This document shows, in pieces, positions 11,056 through 63,542 of a stretch of DNA of 64,000 bases. The stretch covers positions 1,279 through 65,278 of the forward strand of contig JAAZIQ010000048.1 of the NCBI GenBank assembly GCA_012800795.1, written 5' to 3'. The DNA is from Bacillota bacterium. Lineage in GTDB: Bacteria > Bacillota > Dethiobacteria > Dethiobacterales > Dethiobacteraceae. Under the pieces are notes generated by a model that did not search any database, had not been told where the DNA came from, and was given only the letters and a program-made list of their open reading frames with translations. The first letter of the stretch is position 1. Each line of letters begins with the position of its first letter. The translations under genes and the position numbers were made by a program.

Positions 11056-11322
11056 TTATTTGTGCCAGATACGCTCGGCATAAAGCTCTTTTCCCTTAGT
11101 AGTAAAAAAATATACCTCTTCCGCATCGCCGGTACCGGTAGTCAGTAATGATTCTACTACAGGCCATTGTGACTTTGCGAAGCGTGCTGCAATGCCGCAG
11201 GAAGAGGAAATTATGCGGGGAACCGGTATCATGGTTACCTGCTGACCATTGCTTTTCATAATTTTTTCAAAGCGCAGAGCCTGCGAAGTTGAATAAAAGG
11301 TTGCTACATAATAATCGTTCAT
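11056..11322 (-). CDS. DUF3343 / putative Se-S carrier-like protein
   Basis: About 88 aa with a conserved PVPRIISSSCG motif. Start set at ATG 11322 after a GAGGGA RBS. Confidence 0.75.
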   Translation of the reverse strand: MNDYYVATFYSTSQALRFEKIMKSNGQQVTMIPVPRIISSSCGIAARFAKSQWPVVESLLTTGTGDAEEVYFFTTKGKELYAERIWHK

Positions 11323-11580
11323 CTTATCCCTCGCTTCAAAAAACACAATCACAGCTTCTGCTGCTAAAAATACCAATACTATCTTATCAAGCAGTAGCAA
11401 AAGTTACAAGGCGGATAAGAAGGAACAATTATCAATAACATAAATAAAAATTATAGATTATATCAATAGGCAATAATGTAATTAAAGCCGATAGAATTAT
11501 AGAAGTTAAGTTTATGGCAGGAGTTATGCTTGCCAATTACGAACAATATAAAACAACCAAAAAGGGAAAAGGTGTAATCA

Positions 11581-12492
11581 ATGGAATTTTATCAGTTAGA
11601 AGCATTTGTAATGGTTGCTGCTCTTCGTTCTTTTTCTCGGGCGGCGGAACATCTTTATTTAAGCCAGCCTACCATCAGCAGCCATGTTAAAGCACTGGAA
11701 AAAGAACTTGATACTCCGCTTTTTGACCGCGGCAAAAGTGAATTAATGTTAACACAAGCGGGAGAAATACTTTACCGCTATGCCAGGGATATGCTGGACA
11801 TGCGTACCAATGCTTTGAAGGAGTTAAACTCAGAAAAGGTAAAGGATGAGCATTTGGAAATTGCCGCCAGCTCAGTACCCTGTCAGTATTTACTGCCGGA
11901 AACTCTGACACTTTTTCTGCAGCAGTACGGTCCTGTTAATATCCGTCTTTATCAAAAAAACTCACGCACTGTTTGTGAAGAAGTTTTTCGCTACAATTAC
12001 CCCTTGGGAGTAGTGGGGGAAAAAATAAAAATTCCACAATTAAAGTACGAACCTTTAGTGGAAGATAAAATGGTGGTGGCTATTCCACAGCTGCCGGCTT
12101 ATGCTGATTTATTGGCTAAAGAAGAACTAACACTGCAGGATTTAGCCAACTATAAACTGCTTCTACGCGAAGAAGGTTCCGGGACACGTTCTCTCTTGGA
12201 ACAAGAGCTGCAGCAAGTAGGGCTTAGCATTAATTCTTTTCAATTGCAGATTTTTGACAATCAGGAAACCATAAAGCAAGCTGTTCGCCGCGGGCTTGGG
12301 ATAACTATTATTTCCCGTTTAGTGGTGGAAGACTATTTGCAGTTTAATATGTTGGCTGTTCGCCCGCTCCGGAACATACAGCTTAAACGCAATTTTTATC
12401 TTGTTACACATGCTAAACGCATACAGACACCTGCAGCCAAAGCTTTTATTACCTTTATACGTACTTATTTTTCTTCAGGAGGTCAACAATGA
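11581..12492 (+). CDS. LysR family transcriptional regulator
   Basis: N-terminal HTH (FSRAAEHLYLSQPTISSHVKALE) plus a LysR substrate-binding domain. Confidence 0.9.
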   Translation: MEFYQLEAFVMVAALRSFSRAAEHLYLSQPTISSHVKALEKELDTPLFDRGKSELMLTQAGEILYRYARDMLDMRTNALKELNSEKVKDEHLEIAASSVPCQYLLPETLTLFLQQYGPVNIRLYQKNSRTVCEEVFRYNYPLGVVGEKIKIPQLKYEPLVEDKMVVAIPQLPAYADLLAKEELTLQDLANYKLLLREEGSGTRSLLEQELQQVGLSINSFQLQIFDNQETIKQAVRRGLGITIISRLVVEDYLQFNMLAVRPLRNIQLKRNFYLVTHAKRIQTPAAKAFITFIRTYFSSGGQQ

Positions 12493-13646
12493 AAGAAATA
12501 TATGCAGACCATGCTGCCACCTCTTACCCTCGTCCGCCGCAAGTGGCAGAAGCTATGACCAACTATCTGCAAAACATTGGTTGTAACCCCGGGCGGGGCG
12601 GCTATCGTCGTTCTTTGGAGGCTGCCCGCATGGTGTATGAAACACGAGTGCTCCTGGCAGATTTTTTTCATGTTCCCCAGCCGGAACAAGTTGTTTTTAC
12701 TCCCAGTGTTACGTATTCACTAAATTTGGTCCTCAAAGGAGTGCTTACCTCCGGCGACCATGTCCTTATTTCTTCTATGGAACATAATGCCGTGGTACGG
12801 CCTTTAACACGCCTGGCGGCAGAACAGGGCATTCAGGTGGAACGTTTACCCTGCAATGCTGACGGTACCATGGATCCTTTGCAAGTGCGCCGGGCTTTAA
12901 AACCTAATACAAAATTAGTTGTACTTACCCATGCTTCCAATGTAACCGGTACTCTCTTACCGGTCTACGAAGTGGGAGAAATCCTGGCCAAAACAGATAC
13001 TTTATATTGTATAGATGCAGCCCAAACTGCCGGTACTGAAAAAGTTGATTTTCAGGATTTACGGTGTGATTACCTGGCTTTTACCGGACATAAAGGGCTT
13101 TTGGGACCTCCGGGGATAGGCGGACTCTGCTTAAGTGAACGTGCGTTGCTTGCAACTAATTCCTTGGTGGAAGGAGGTACCGGCAGCCGCTCTGAAGATG
13201 AAAATCAACCACAATTTTTACCGGATAAATTTGAAAGTGGAACACAAAATGCCCCCGGTATTGCCGGCTTGGCAGCCGGTATAAAAATTATTAATCAGGT
13301 CGGGTTGACTGCAATTAAAGAGAAAAAAAGAAATTTGACGGCAGCTTTTTTAGACGGAATTAGTGGCTTGCCTGGTATTCATATCTATGGTACAAAAGAC
13401 CCGAATCTCACTACCGCCACCGTTTCCATCAATATGGAAGGCATCGATAATGGTGATTTAAGCTTTATGCTGGAGCAGGGTTATGGTATTATGACACGCT
13501 CCGGTCTGCATTGTGCACCACTGGCACATCATACTATTGGGTCCTTTCCTGTAGGCACGCTGCGTTTTTCCTTTGGCTGGCAAAATACCATGGAGGAAAT
13601 TGAAACCATGATACAAGCCTTACGCGAAATCATAAAGGAGCATTAA
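12489..13646 (+). CDS. Class V aminotransferase, cysteine desulfurase / selenocysteine lyase family
   Basis: PLP-lysine motif FTGHKGL, active-site RSGLHCAP, ATGA overlap with the lysR stop. Confidence 0.85.
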   Translation: MKEIYADHAATSYPRPPQVAEAMTNYLQNIGCNPGRGGYRRSLEAARMVYETRVLLADFFHVPQPEQVVFTPSVTYSLNLVLKGVLTSGDHVLISSMEHNAVVRPLTRLAAEQGIQVERLPCNADGTMDPLQVRRALKPNTKLVVLTHASNVTGTLLPVYEVGEILAKTDTLYCIDAAQTAGTEKVDFQDLRCDYLAFTGHKGLLGPPGIGGLCLSERALLATNSLVEGGTGSRSEDENQPQFLPDKFESGTQNAPGIAGLAAGIKIINQVGLTAIKEKKRNLTAAFLDGISGLPGIHIYGTKDPNLTTATVSINMEGIDNGDLSFMLEQGYGIMTRSGLHCAPLAHHTIGSFPVGTLRFSFGWQNTMEEIETMIQALREIIKEH

Positions 13647-13652
13647 ACCGTA

Positions 13653-14117
13653 ATGACGTATGAAAATAAATTAAAGGCCTATATTCAAAAACATCAGCTG
13701 GCTGTAGAGCATTTAAGTTTTGATGTAAGTTGTCATTCAGTAGCTGATGCTGCGGCTGCAGTTGGTGCCCCACCTACTTATTTTGTTAAAAATATCTGTT
13801 TGCTCGGACCAAATAAAGAATTTGCCGTAGCTATTGTACGAGGAGAGGACCGCGTCTCCTTTAAAAAAGTTGCCCAACTGTTGGGAGTAAAAAAAATGCG
13901 TATGGCTAATGCAGCTGAAATTTTAGAATATACCGGTTATCCCTGTGGCGGTACACCCTCTTTTGGCTTTCCTGCCCTGTATTTAATGGATAAAGGTATT
14001 TTTTCTTTACCCTTTGTATACACTGGCGGTGGGTCTGAAACATCCTTAGTAAAGGCAACGCCACAAATTTTATTAGCTGCCAACAAGGCGCAAGTTGCTG
14101 ATATAATAAAAGTATAG
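13653..14117 (+). CDS. YbaK/EbsC-type aminoacyl-tRNA editing domain protein
   Basis: About 154 aa with a YbaK/ProX-like fold sequence, 7 nt after the desulfurase gene. Confidence 0.7.
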   Translation: MTYENKLKAYIQKHQLAVEHLSFDVSCHSVADAAAAVGAPPTYFVKNICLLGPNKEFAVAIVRGEDRVSFKKVAQLLGVKKMRMANAAEILEYTGYPCGGTPSFGFPALYLMDKGIFSLPFVYTGGGSETSLVKATPQILLAANKAQVADIIKV

Positions 14118-14172
14118 GATATACATAAAGTAGCCTGCTGGCAACTCATACTATAAAAAAGGAGTTGATAGC

Positions 14173-14352
14173 ATGGACAAAACAAGAGCTAAACAGATTA
14201 TTAATTCACCGGATAAAATCGAAGTCTATTATCAAGGCAAACCCGTGTGGTTGGAAAGTATTGAAGAAAATTCTGCTTATGTCACAGTAATGGGCACTTG
14301 TCGTACCATGACTGTACCATTGGCGGAATTAGAAGAAATTCAAACACATTAA
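14173..14352 (+). CDS. sspH: Small acid-soluble spore protein, H-type (59 aa; absent from the ORF track)
   Basis: MDKTRAKQIINSPDKIEVYYQGKPVWLESIEE resembles SspH. GGAG RBS, a CATACTA forespore-type -10 at 14147, and a strong terminator. Confidence 0.75.
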   Translation: MDKTRAKQIINSPDKIEVYYQGKPVWLESIEENSAYVTVMGTCRTMTVPLAELEEIQTH

Positions 14353-35698: not shown

Positions 35699-35743
35699 AT
35701 AGCTTATATCTATTACTCAAATTGCTTTATAGGTATAAGCTAT
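35699..35743. repeat. 15-bp inverted repeat (14/15) with a 15-nt spacer
   Basis: ATAGCTTATATCTAT pairs with ATAGGTATAAGCTAT, followed by TTTTACTTT. It could be a terminator for the upstream ORF or an operator for yedE. Confidence 0.6.
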
Positions 35744-35815: not shown

Positions 35816-36901
35816 TTGAAAAACTTTTTAGCATCACGACGCGGAATCATATTTGTTGGCGGCGTTATTGGAATTTTAGCAGCATTTCTGCAAAAATTGG
35901 GCAACCCTGGCAACATGGGTATTTGTGTAGCCTGCTTTGAGCGCGATATTGCAGGAGGGTTGGGGCTCCATAGAGCACCCATTGTTCAATATGTACGTCC
36001 GGAAATAATCGGTCTTGTTTTAGGTGCTTTTATAGCTGCTTATCTTTTTAAAGAATTTAAACCTCGCTCGGGCTCCGCTCCGCTTGTCAGATTTATTCTC
36101 GGAGCTTTTGCCATGATTGGAGCACTAGTCTTTTTAGGTTGTCCCTGGAGAGCTTTACTTCGTTTGGCAGGCGGAGATGGCAACGCCATTTTAGGTTTAC
36201 TTGGATTAACAGTCGGTGTTTGGATCGGTACCATCTTTTTGAAAAACGGTTATACTTTAGGACGTACACAAAAAACTTACAAAGCTGCCGGCTTTGTTTT
36301 CCCCTTGCTAATGGTGGGACTATTAGTAGCTGTGCTGCTCAACCCTCAAGTTGAAGGGGCAGAAAAAAGCGGTATTTTATTTTACAGCCTCGAAGGTCCT
36401 GGATCAATGCATGCACCGCTTATAATCTCACTTTTATTTGCTATAGTCATAGGCTTTTTGGCACAGCGTAGCCGTTTTTGCACCATGGGGGCAGTGCGAG
36501 ACTTGATTTTATTTAAGCACACACATCTTTTCAGCGGCGTAGTCAGTTTAGTAGTTGCAGCATTTATCACCAATATTATCTTTAAACAATTTAATCCTGG
36601 TTTTAGCGGTCAACCGGTAGCGCATACAATGCATCTCTGGAATTTTGCCGGCATGGTATTAGCAGGATTGGCTTTTGCTTTAGCCGGAGGTTGCCCCGGC
36701 CGACAGCTCTTTTTGGCAGGTGAAGGTGACGGCGATGCTGCCATTTTTGCCCTCGGCATGATAATAGGAGCCGCATTCGCCCATAATTTTGGCTTGGCCA
36801 GCTCAACCGCAGGTGCTACACCTGCTGGTATGGTAGCAACAGTAATAGGTCTAATAGTCTGCATGCTAATAGGTCTTACCATGAGAGAAAAAGTAGTCTA
36901 A
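35816..36901 (+). CDS. YedE/YeeE family sulfur/selenium-compound transporter
   Basis: Multi-TM protein with two conserved Cys loops (GICVACFERD, SRFCTMGAVRD). TTG start after GGGAGGAG. Confidence 0.85.
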   Translation: MKNFLASRRGIIFVGGVIGILAAFLQKLGNPGNMGICVACFERDIAGGLGLHRAPIVQYVRPEIIGLVLGAFIAAYLFKEFKPRSGSAPLVRFILGAFAMIGALVFLGCPWRALLRLAGGDGNAILGLLGLTVGVWIGTIFLKNGYTLGRTQKTYKAAGFVFPLLMVGLLVAVLLNPQVEGAEKSGILFYSLEGPGSMHAPLIISLLFAIVIGFLAQRSRFCTMGAVRDLILFKHTHLFSGVVSLVVAAFITNIIFKQFNPGFSGQPVAHTMHLWNFAGMVLAGLAFALAGGCPGRQLFLAGEGDGDAAIFALGMIIGAAFAHNFGLASSTAGATPAGMVATVIGLIVCMLIGLTMREKVV

Positions 36902-36914
36902 GGAGGTGCAAAAG

Positions 36915-37130
36915 ATGAGTAAAATAATAGACGCTAGGGGCCTTTCCTGCCCACAGCCTGTTATGTTAACTATTAATGAGCTAGAAAATACCACTGAAAC
37001 TCAACTGGAAATCTTGGTTGACACCGATACTGCAAAAGAAAATGTAACCCGAGCCATAACTTCACAAGGATGGCAGGTTGCAAAAATTGAAACTTTGGAT
37101 GATGAATATAAAATAGTCATAAAAAAATAA
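36915..37130 (+). CDS. TusA/SirA (YedF/YeeD)-like sulfurtransferase
   Basis: DARGLSCPQP CPxP motif, 71 aa, AAGGAGG RBS. Confidence 0.8.
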   Translation: MSKIIDARGLSCPQPVMLTINELENTTETQLEILVDTDTAKENVTRAITSQGWQVAKIETLDDEYKIVIKK

Positions 37131-59753: not shown

Positions 59754-60539
59754 TTATTTAGTCTCTTGACCCGGGGAATTGACTTTTTCGTTTTGACGTT
59801 TATTATCCCAAAGCAATAATGCAACCAGTGCCACGACAAGGATCCGGAGAGGGCGAAAAATTGCATTCCAAATATATGCCGACACAGGAACTTTTGGATT
59901 GTTCGGCAGTCCGTACTTTTCCGGTTCATCTTTTAGAATATACATAACTGCGGTTCCGCCCAGTTCCTCTAAACCATAAATACGGGAATTTGTATAGCCT
60001 TCTGCAATCAGTTGGTTTACCCTTTTATGCGCCAATTCCACCATTTCCGCACGAGTACCAAAATTTATGGCCCCGGTGGGACAAGCTTTGGCACAAGCTG
60101 GAGTTAAACCTATCACCTGCCGGTCAGAGCACAATGTACATTTTTGCGAAACATTTTCCTTTTGGTTGAAAGCCATAACTTTAAAAGTACAGCTGGCGAC
60201 ACAATAGTTGCAGCCAATGCATTTGCGCGGATCTGTTACTACAGCTCCTCTATCTGTATGACTTATGGCCCCGGCGGGACAAACCTTTTCACAAGCAGCA
60301 TCCGTACAATGCATACAACCTTTTTTAGCAAAATACCACTTCATTTCACCGGTCGTTTCATCTTCATGTTCTCGAAATACAACTCTCGTCCATGAATTGG
60401 CGGTAAAGCGAACAGGGTTCTCATAATAACCGGTAAATGTGGTATCTTCAGCAGGAAGTCCGTTCCACTGCTTGCAGGCCACTTGACAGGCACGACAACC
60501 AATACACTTTGATGTATCTATTAATTTTGAAGTTAGCAT
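59754..60539 (-). CDS. Formate dehydrogenase iron-sulfur subunit (FdnH-like) with C-terminal TM anchor
   Basis: Four CxxCxxCxxxC-type clusters and a C-terminal hydrophobic helix LRILVVALVALLLW. Confidence 0.9.
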   Translation of the reverse strand: MLTSKLIDTSKCIGCRACQVACKQWNGLPAEDTTFTGYYENPVRFTANSWTRVVFREHEDETTGEMKWYFAKKGCMHCTDAACEKVCPAGAISHTDRGAVVTDPRKCIGCNYCVASCTFKVMAFNQKENVSQKCTLCSDRQVIGLTPACAKACPTGAINFGTRAEMVELAHKRVNQLIAEGYTNSRIYGLEELGGTAVMYILKDEPEKYGLPNNPKVPVSAYIWNAIFRPLRILVVALVALLLWDNKRQNEKVNSPGQETK

Positions 60540-60542
60540 ATT

Positions 60543-63542
60543 TTAGACCACCTTCCTTATATTGCAGAGAAAGGCCTTGTATTCGGGTATACTTGTATTC
60601 GCATCACCAATGGAAGGCACAAGATCATTGACAATATCTCCTCTGTTTAATCCCATATAGCCCCAGTGAAATGGCATGCCCACTATTTCCCGCAATTCGC
60701 CATTAATCAGAAGCGGTTTTAAGCGTGGTGTAATACAAGCAATGGCGGCAATTTCTTTTTTACGGTAACTGCTGACTAAAACTTTATCTCCATTCTTTAT
60801 ATTTAATTTTTCTGCTAAGGTCGGGCTGATTTCGATAAATAACTCGGGCATTAATTCATTTAGCCAGGGAGTATTTCTGGTCATAATTCCTGACTGCCAG
60901 TGTTCAGTAACACGGTAAGTCGAGATAATATAAGGATAATTGTCATCTCCGGCTTCCGCCAAATGATTTTCATACCAAATTTTTGACACGGGATTAAATT
61001 GGACAGTTGTGGAGAGTAAATTGCGAATGGGACTCTCCGCCGGCTCATAATGCTCTGGGAACGGACCGTCTGCCATGGTATTGGCAAATAGTCTTGCCTG
61101 CTGTTCCGGCAGCATTATAAATGGACTTTGAGCAGTAGCGTCGGGAGGAACATTGGCATTAAAATCAGGCACATCATTGCGCTGCCATGTGGAACCATCC
61201 CACCACATTAAAGGAATTTCAGGATTCCAGGGCTTACCCTGGGGATCAGCAGAGCAACGATTGTATATTATGCGTCTGTTCAACGGCCAAGCAAATGCCC
61301 ATTGGGCATTAGTGCCAATCCCTGTTTCCTCCTTAATACGGCTTTTGCAGGCTGGGTTTGTAGTGTTATTATAATATCCACTGTAAATCCAACAGCCACA
61401 AGCAGTACTGCCATCATCTGCCAGATTGGTAAAGTCCTGTATAAGAGTGCCCGTTCTGGTATCGTAGCCGTTAATTTCCATGGCCACTTTATTGGCATCG
61501 GGCTCCTCTCCATAATCCCAAACCATATTTAAGATTGGATCAGGAAACGGTCCCGGATTTTTTTCATATTCTGCCCGAATAGCTTTGAAAAGGCGATCAA
61601 CAATCCAAAGATCCGTTTTAGCATCACCTAATGGTTCTTGTGCCTGATAACGCCATTGAATCCAGCGGCCGCTGTTAGCAACGGTACCTTCACGCTCATA
61701 TGAAGCAGAAGCAGGCAGTAAAAATACCTCTGTATCAATTTTTGTCGGATCAACCCCCGGCTCTTTCCAAAAAGCAGCTGTTTCATTTTCAAATATATCA
61801 ATAGAAACGAGCCAATCAAGATTTTTTGTATAGTTGCGTTTATCAGAAGCACTGGGTCCGGTTACGGCAGGATTGTCTGCCCAGCAGATCATGCCCTTTA
61901 TTTCACCTTCACCCATATACTTATACATGCCGATATGAGAGCGATCTTTATCGTCTAATTTTGGTAAATAATCATAACAATAATCATTTTCTTTAGTGGC
62001 AGCATCCCCATACCAAGCTTTAAGCATACTGATTAAAAATTTAGGTTTATTAGCCCAGTAGCCGCTGGAGGGGGTTTCCTTTTCCAGGTATGCTGCTAAA
62101 TTTTCATGCTGAGCAGCTTTTGGCATGTTTAAATAGCCTGGCAGGAGATGATAAAGCATAGCCATGTCCGTAGAGCCTTGAACGTTAGCCTGGCCACGCT
62201 GTGCATTCACGCCGCCGCCGGGAATGCCAATGTTGCCGAGCAGCAGCTGCAGGCAAGCAATAGCACGTACATTTTGCGAACCATGCGTAAATTGTGTTAT
62301 ACCCATAGCATAAAGAATATTACCGGCTTTGCCAGCCTGACCAGTACTGGCATACAGCTCGGCCACTGCCTTTAATTTCTCAGACGGGCAGCCCGTAATC
62401 TTGCTAACAGTTTGTAGATCATAACGTTCGTAATGTTTTTTCATTAACTGCAGCACCGATTGAGGATCTTTTGCTGCAGGATCTTTTTTTATGCTGCCGT
62501 CTTCATTTAATTGATAACTCCAAGAGCTTTTATCATAAATAACAACGCGGTCTTCCGCCTCTAGGGCTCCTGAAAACAACCCGTCTTTAAAAGAATAGTC
62601 CGGATTAACAAGATAAGTGGCATTGGTATAGTTTAATACATATTCTTTGTGATAAAGTTCATTTGACAGGATGTAATTGATAATGTAGCCCAAAAAAGCA
62701 ATATTGGTACCCGGCCGTATCGGTGCATATAAATCAGCCACGGCGGCAGTACGGGTGAAACGTGGGTCCACTACTATCAGCTTAGCTCCCCTTTCTGCGC
62801 GGGCACGTTCAATCCATTTCATGGAAATGGGATGGTTTTCCGCCGGGTTACAGCCAAAAGCCATTATCACATCGGAATTTTTATAATCAATCCAGTGGTT
62901 CGTCATTGCACCCCGTCCAAATGTGTTGCCCAGACCGGCAACGGTGGAGGAGTGTCAGAGACGGGCACAGTGGTCAATATTTATAATTCCAAGTGCCCGA
63001 ATCATTTTTTGGTAAAGATAATTCTCTTCATTGGTGCAGGTAGCGCTACCCAAATGAGCAATCGCCCTAGTCCGGTTAACTGTCACCCCATTTTCATCGA
63101 CTCTTTCAAAAGTTGAGTCCCTTGTTTCTTTGATGCGTTTGGCAATTTCCGTTATAGCCCAATCCCAGTCTACTTCCTGCCACTCTGTAGCTCGTTTAGC
63201 CCGATAGAGTACTTTTTTCACGCGTTTCGGGTTTTCAACCGCCTCTCCCTGTTGATTATAAACGTAAGAAAGATTAAAAACCGAACTGCCTTTACTGCAT
63301 AAAGAACCTTCATTGATGGGATGATCGGGATCACCTTCTGCACCTACGACTTTATTATTTTGTACATAGCAGATTATTCCACATCCCACTGAACAATATG
63401 GACAAATTGTAGTAACTTCCTTTGCATATTGCACAGGTACTCCTGCAGCCTCAGCACTGTCGAAAAAGCCAAAGTTGGCTAAAGTAACAGTACCAAGAGC
63501 TACACCTGTAAGTTTAAGAAAATCTCGGCGGGATAATTTCAT
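60543..63542 (-). CDS. Formate dehydrogenase catalytic subunit (FdnG-type), selenocysteine-containing, Tat-exported
   Basis: Track ORFs 62955..63542 and 60543..62906 are in frame across TGA at 62955-62957, giving [27 protein letters not shown]. Tat motif SRRDFLK. Confidence 0.93.
62925..62942 (-). promoter_or_regulatory. SECIS-like hairpin downstream of the UGA
   Basis: GUUGCC-GGUCUG-GGCAAC starts 12 nt 3' of the UGA. The GGUC-containing loop resembles the E. coli fdhF SECIS apex. Confidence 0.7.

Follow-up and report, generated by a model that had tools for sequence, protein, structure and literature searches.

The 64,000-nucleotide stretch of DNA analysed here (the window) comes from a Bacillota bacterium of the Dethiobacteraceae (GCA_012800795.1, contig JAAZIQ010000048.1, forward-strand positions 1,279 to 65,278) and carries, between positions 11056 and 14117, a four-gene locus that is probably a selenium-handling module of a known kind, accompanied in this lineage by a housekeeping deacylase travelling as a passenger. 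On the minus strand lies the gene for an 88-residue DUF3343 protein (PF11823, putative Se/S carrier; 11056–11322), with its ATG at 11322 and the longest open reading frame (ORF) running to 11400. A divergent spacer of 258 bp (11323–11580) separates it from three plus-strand genes. These encode a 303-residue LysR_Se regulator with HTH_1 and LysR_substrate domains (NF040786; 11581–12492), a 385-residue SclA-type class V pyridoxal phosphate (PLP) enzyme that is a probable selenocysteine lyase or cysteine desulfurase (TIGR01977; 12489–13646), and a 154-residue YbaK-like aminoacyl-tRNA deacylase of the INS superfamily (PF04073; 13653–14117). The stop codon of lysR and the start codon of the lyase gene overlap as ATGA at 12489–12492. 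A preliminary description, made from the letters of the window alone, had proposed these four genes together with their motifs, the ATGA overlap and the 258-bp divergent region, all of which are borne out by the ORFs and their translations. The profile searches that it called for returned PF11823 at E=1e-18 for the carrier, HTH_1 and LysR_substrate for the regulator, Aminotran_5 at E=1e-88 for the lyase and tRNA_edit at E=1e-25 for the deacylase. It had placed the YbaK-like gene 7 nt after the lyase gene; the two are indeed adjacent, but the gap itself measures 6 nt and the start codon begins at the seventh base.

The lysR–lyase pair is the conserved core of the locus. Lyase orthologues (67–86% identity) occur in all 23 family genomes, lysR is directly upstream of the lyase gene in each of the 20 family loci fetched, and in these loci the pair occupies a syntenic site between dinB/yggT and sspH/miaB/mutS. 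This core would act as a two-gene operon, lysR_Se–sclA, translationally coupled through the ATGA overlap and presumably co-transcribed. The divergent side is more variable: yedE-yedF-DUF3343 faces lysR in 11 of the 20 loci, DUF3343 stands there alone in three and in the window, five lack both yedE-yedF and DUF3343, and one locus ends at a contig edge. The YbaK-like gene follows the lyase gene in four of the 20 loci and in the window (5/21), plus one extra metagenome bin, and it is linked to the module genes nowhere else; the preliminary description, which counted the deacylase in its candidate module, is therefore not sustained on this point. A sister genome (100/99 support) from the same genus, whose lyase is 86% identical, lacks the YbaK-like gene and carries about 62 nt in place of window positions 13647–14120. 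The 3′ flank of the sister junction aligns from just past the deacylase stop and the apparent 5′ remnant is no better than shuffled sequence, so that the junction is compatible with deletion and insertion alike. On the lyase tree the distribution of deacylase carriers requires at least three gains or losses, at least two of them forced by well-supported branches. Since selD was found in all 22 Dethiobacteraceae genomes tested, the dependence of the block on selD has no contrast within the family.

The distribution of the deacylase outside the Dethiobacteraceae points in the same direction. Its homologues were collected with the profile of alignment A1, which was needed because a single-sequence scan of genome contigs gave no match. 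The family comprises 905 matches at E<=1e-5 and is about 50% identical across Bacillota, Binatia, Chloroflexota, candidate phyla radiation (CPR) bacteria, DPANN archaea and Methanosarcina. Among the loci of 80 species, the deacylase has an SclA, LysR or DUF3343 homologue at a distance of up to 6 kb in the three family members and in none of the 77 other species. Clustering of the neighbours of these 77 homologues revealed no general partner gene, only clade-specific neighbours that come mostly from many Binatia genomes. Within a sample of 301 genomes of the phylum, 14 carry the deacylase (the window's own genome and 13 others), and none of the 13 has it adjacent to any LysR_Se gene listed; the smallest distance is 21 kb. 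The selD gene is present in seven of these 13 carriers and in 21 of 45 carriers elsewhere, leaving 30 of the 58 without it. The proposed co-occurrence of the four-gene block with the selenocysteine trait thus divides into a conserved lysR–lyase core and a deacylase family that is about equally common with and without selD. Absence of co-conservation and independence of selD, which the preliminary description had named as grounds for abandoning its proposal, essentially describe the deacylase; they do not describe the LysR–lyase core. As the coupling of the deacylase to the module is lineage-restricted, patchy and independent of selD, the gene should not be propagated in annotation as a selenium gene.

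The alternative that this lineage uses the deacylase as a working component of its selenium operon bears directly on the same data. Here the enzyme would clear selenocysteine (Sec) misacylated onto tRNA(Cys) by cysteinyl-tRNA synthetase (CysRS) or onto tRNA(Pro) by prolyl-tRNA synthetase (ProRS), and, co-induced with an SclA enzyme that destroys free selenocysteine, it would complete a two-layer defence against random selenocysteine incorporation when selenium or selenocysteine is abundant. The gene arrangement agrees with this proposal, as the 6-nt gap is accompanied by a separate AAGGAG 13 nt upstream of the YbaK-like start and no terminator was seen between the lyase gene and the YbaK-like gene. 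Several observations weigh against the passenger interpretation in the same way. In the Dethiobacteraceae the deacylase subfamily has no location in the genomes other than immediately behind sclA, the adjacency is kept in five to six diverged genomes, and the gap remains at about 2–20 nt among carriers with proteins only 60–68% identical; such constant adjacency would also agree with a functional link within the lineage. The subfamily is marked by three invariant cysteines and one histidine, none of which occurs in its solved relatives, and thiol-specific chemistry is reported for true YbaK (PMC11295145). However, the deacylase is missing in about three-quarters of the family genomes that keep lysR–sclA and selD, the same-genus sister included, and no linkage to the module appears in the 77 and 13 other carriers. 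The Cys/His signature is invariant in representatives from several bacterial phyla, yet 30 of the 58 other carriers have no selD. Moreover, a single insertion inherited vertically thereafter would leave the gene in just such a constant position. A selenium-specific duty for the deacylase is thus improbable, and a low probability likewise attaches to the idea that a subclade of the Dethiobacteraceae recruited a widespread, uncharacterised INS deacylase (Cys27-His28-Ser29, Cys49 and Cys98, invariant about the catalytic Lys and the GGTP loop) into the LysR_Se operon against Sec- or Cys-misacylated tRNAs. If such recruitment did take place, the enzyme would provide the first proofreading step dedicated to preventing non-programmed incorporation of selenocysteine. 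In the preferred interpretation of the deacylase as a passenger, one lineage-specific insertion or retention, and not a selenium-specific role, would account for its place in the operon.

The identity of the deacylase is compatible with a general editing function. The protein matches PF04073 (tRNA_edit) with 90.2 bits but fails the YbaK equivalog TIGR00011 (62.4 bits against a cut-off of 153.25), and its profile reaches only 39 bits with Haemophilus influenzae YbaK. Although it shares the Pfam domain and the fold of YbaK, the Cys-tRNAPro deacylase, with a template modelling (TM) score of 0.87 to 1DBU, the two are 22–23% identical. The window protein is not a true YbaK, and the label YbaK/EbsC-type given in the preliminary description should be dropped. 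The predicted model (predicted local distance difference test, pLDDT, 95.3) and the profile search agree on the nearest solved structures, Thermus thermophilus ProX TTHA1699 (2CX5, TM 0.92; its complex with AlaSA is 2Z0K) and A. pernix APE2540 (1WDV, TM 0.90). All three display the same single-domain INS fold and retain both the lysine corresponding to K46 and the GGxP loop; K46 and G99-G100-T101-P102 are invariant in alignment A1. In contrast, identity to these proteins is only 28–31%, and C27-H28-S29, C49 and C98 are specific to the subfamily of the window deacylase, 1WDV and 2CX5 carrying T-R-T, I/V and V/I at the equivalent places. Across 26 aligned representatives from several bacterial phyla C27, S29, C49 and C98 are invariant and H28 is nearly so. 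This conserved Cys/His set could form a metal site or a thiol-lined pocket. ProXp-x enzymes act on Abu-tRNA with a preference for A73. A 2024 review takes 2CX5 as its representative of ProXp-x, an aminobutyryl-tRNA deacylase, and lists ProXp-7 together with ProXp-8 and ProXp-9 as uncharacterised (PMC11295145). The window deacylase may belong to one of these last three groups, and the function of its clade appears to be uncharacterised so far.

The genomic context of the deacylase favours a housekeeping role. The gene is the sole PF04073 member of the host genome, and the host ProRS (contig C92, 9267–10682) belongs to family I, the archaeal/eukaryote-like type (TIGR00408, 642 bits), and has no INS editing domain, a configuration shared with T. 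thermophilus. With a single INS-type editor beside a ProRS devoid of an editing domain, housekeeping trans-editing is therefore the best-supported role, and the enzyme most likely proofreads for the family I ProRS or removes a related misacylation (Ala, Cys or aminobutyrate). What weighs against this assignment is that INS-type editors are entirely absent from nine of the 22 other family genomes, so that housekeeping has to be understood as useful but dispensable. In nine further family genomes without this deacylase a different INS subfamily (<=29% identity) is encoded elsewhere in the genome. Editors of this type are thus interchangeable and dispensable in the family.

The core proteins of the locus belong to families already associated with selenium. 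The regulator scores 299.7 bits on NF040786, the selenium metabolism-associated LysR model (cut-off 250), and aligns with positions 1–296 of 298. It shows the HTH_1 and substrate-binding architecture of the LysR_Se subfamily, which includes archaeal HrsM, and like other members it resides in a selD-bearing, Sec-decoding genome next to selenium-related genes. Proteins above the NF040786 cut-off were found in 190 of the 301 phylum genomes sampled, and in 12 of the 30 best loci of this sample an SclA-like gene adjoins LysR_Se. Lin et al. (2015, PMC5322559) associated LysR_Se and DUF3343 with selenium; they describe a proline specific to the LysR_Se subfamily in its substrate-binding domain and mention neither YbaK nor any deacylase. 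The lyase matches TIGR01977 over its full length (458.6 bits, cut-off 377). In 2008 phylogenetic profiling connected this family, with EF_2568, to selD and led to its proposal as a selenocysteine lyase (Haft & Self, PMC2276186), and the Enterococcus faecalis enzyme EF_2568 was later characterised as SclA, Sec-specific in catalysis (Johnstone et al. 2021 preprint, 10.1101/2020.02.07.939272). The window enzyme shares with E. faecalis SclA the TIGR01977 clade, the short N-terminus, the PLP lysine in FTGHKG (K202 of SclA), the catalytic cysteine in RSGLHCAP (C341 of SclA) and a histidine equivalent to H99. In contrast, the H100 position is occupied by Asn (EHN), and the gene is paired with lysR_Se and does not lie beside selD in a selenium-dependent molybdenum hydroxylase (SDMH) cluster. 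By its predicted activity, the enzyme would draw selenium out of free L-selenocysteine, load it on the active-site cysteine and relay it towards SelD for selenophosphate synthesis, and it may use the sulfur of cysteine too.

The possible use of sulfur leads to a different explanation of the core, in which the class V enzyme acts chiefly as a cysteine desulfurase supplying sulfur to DUF3343 or TusA-type carriers, and the sulfur relay merely co-occurs with selenium genes. The lyase scores 441.9 bits on the NF040779 SclA exception model, short of the cut-off of 525. This shortfall counts against a selenium assignment: the enzyme could be a cysteine desulfurase, and a preference for selenocysteine is for this reason only putative. 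The enzyme reaches 268 bits on SufS as well, the annotation of DUF3343 and YedF/TusA is that of Se/S carriers, and the affinity of E. faecalis SclA itself is higher for L-cysteine than for L-selenocysteine (preprint 10.1101/2020.02.07.939272). Set against these points, the regulator passes a selenium-specific LysR equivalog whose members are reported only from selD-containing organisms (PMC5322559), the partner transporter passes the seleno_YedE model, and two other class V paralogues in the host genome are free for iron-sulfur (Fe-S) work. The ties of TIGR01977 to selD and the Sec-specific catalysis of its characterised member argue likewise against a primary sulfur function, which is rather unlikely. 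The grouping of LysR, NifS-like lyase and DUF3343 as a selenium-linked module, put forward in the preliminary description, agrees with the scores on NF040786 and TIGR01977 and with the selenocysteine genes present in the host. Such a module is already known from the literature and from NCBIfam (PMC5322559, PMC2276186, Johnstone et al. 2021 preprint). The connection of LysR_Se, DUF3343, YedE/YedF and the TIGR01977 lyase with selenium dates from 2008–2015, so that the locus adds little to selenium biology in this respect.

The host genome, a 1.67-Mb metagenome-assembled genome (MAG) of about 90% completeness from a family that includes Dethiobacter alkaliphilus, makes selenoproteins. It contains selA, a selD gene with an in-frame TGA, encoding a Sec-containing SelD, and directly upstream of it a selB fragment cut by the contig end (both at contig C85, 9431–11921). 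No tRNA-Sec was found in the assembly by ARAGORN, and the best Rfam match (45 bits against 47) is an ordinary 76-nt tRNA. Because selB sits at a contig end, this absence most likely reflects an assembly gap, with the gene probably just past that end. The formate dehydrogenase (FDH) alpha subunit noted in the preliminary description at 60543–63542 is a real selenoprotein, to be placed on the minus strand, with a 999-residue frame interrupted by a single TGA in HCARLUHSST. This UGA-containing FDH is a sign that the selenocysteine trait is in use in the host.

The DUF3343 protein matches PF11823 over its full length (66.9 bits, gathering threshold 25) and retains the ISSSCG cysteine motif; it would serve as a small Cys-based carrier. 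Its gene adjoins lysR in 15 of 20 family genomes. The other members of its usual neighbourhood are encoded 22 kb from lysR_Se in the window (35816–37130, plus strand), where a putative selenium transporter gene, yedE (35816–36901, 361 residues, PF04143), is followed by a TusA/YedF-like gene of 74 residues (PF01206). YedE reaches 492.5 bits on TIGR04112 seleno_YedE (cut-off 200), and the YedF model covers only the TusA domain of the 74-residue protein (57 bits, under its cut-off). In common with the yedE-yedF-DUF3343 neighbourhood described by Lin et al. (2015), a DUF3343 protein with its conserved cysteine adjoins selenium genes. Whereas relatives keep the full operon divergent from lysR_Se, only DUF3343 remains at the lysR locus here, and the distant yedE-yedF pair has tandem regulator boxes of its own. 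The window YedE is only 48% identical to that of D. alkaliphilus, whose gene is divergent from lysR. The window copy may be relocated or paralogous. The arrangement is complete in D. alkaliphilus, a cultured relative, where yedE-yedF-DUF3343 faces a lysR-sclA unit followed by the YbaK-like gene.

Two repeats in the divergent spacer had been suggested as LysR sites at about 11429 and 11459, 30 nt apart. Both copies of TATCAATA exist but lie exactly at 11430 and 11461, 31 nt apart; the window holds nine copies in all against 3.4 expected by shuffling. Alignment of the regions upstream of lysR in the family reveals two dyad boxes of the form ATAG-N7-CTAT (T-N11-A, LysR-type), about 30 bp apart and 97–137 nt upstream of the gene, and the two repeats are the right halves of these conserved boxes. 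Box 1 (GGAACAATTATCAAT, 11422–11436) contains the first repeat and is degenerate, with four of eight core positions, although it aligns with the family box located about 117–137 nt upstream of lysR. Box 2 (ATAGATTATATCAAT, 11453–11467) contains the second repeat, forms a T-N11-A dyad and retains seven of eight core positions; a same-genus relative has the perfect dyad ATAGATTATATCTAT in its place. Boxes reach a density of 3.9/kb upstream of family lysR genes against 0.38/kb genome-wide (about 10-fold), and they are missing in four of the five family genomes without divergent yedE/DUF3343 genes. Tandem perfect boxes (ATAGCTTATATCTAT and ATAGGTATAAGCTAT, 30 nt apart; 35699–35743) are found 73 nt upstream of yedE. 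A scan of the 1.67-Mb genome gave 22 perfect boxes, and the sole perfect pair at a spacing of 27–35 nt is this one upstream of yedE. Outside the family, perfect boxes precede LysR_Se in four of 30 loci, three of them SclA-adjacent.

Taken together, the conservation of the boxes supports their assignment as candidate LysR_Se operators and agrees with the suggestion that the TATCAATA repeats form part of LysR sites. LysR_Se would bind the two boxes in the divergent promoter region and would control the divergent DUF3343 gene, its own lysR-sclA operon and, here, a relocated yedE-yedF selenium-uptake pair. No published operator for the bacterial LysR_Se subfamily was found in the literature searched. 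Comparative footprinting provides a concrete candidate, the tandem ATAG-N7-CTAT box, together with a predicted regulon that includes yedEF.

Closer to lysR, a promoter-proximal element of the form GCAGGA-N16-18-T(G/A)CGAA.A.TAT (11517–11549, plus strand) is conserved across the family. An alignment of eight genomes shows no variation in GCAGGA or CGAA, and inspection by eye recovers the element, with small variations and 30–65 nt before lysR, in almost every one of the 21 family upstream regions, including those of genomes without divergent genes. The GGCAGGA element was also considered as a sigma-54 site and discarded, because relatives do not conserve the -12 GC and TGCGAA, which is invariant, lies at the wrong distance. 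No Rfam family matched the leader or the divergent spacer.

Among the neighbouring genes, a gene for a 4Fe-4S ferredoxin-type subunit with many CxxCxxC motifs (59754–60539, minus strand) lies directly downstream of the FDH alpha subunit and presumably encodes FdhB. After the lysR–lyase operon, an SspH small acid-soluble spore protein gene of 59 codons occupies positions 14173–14352, a position kept in most family genomes.

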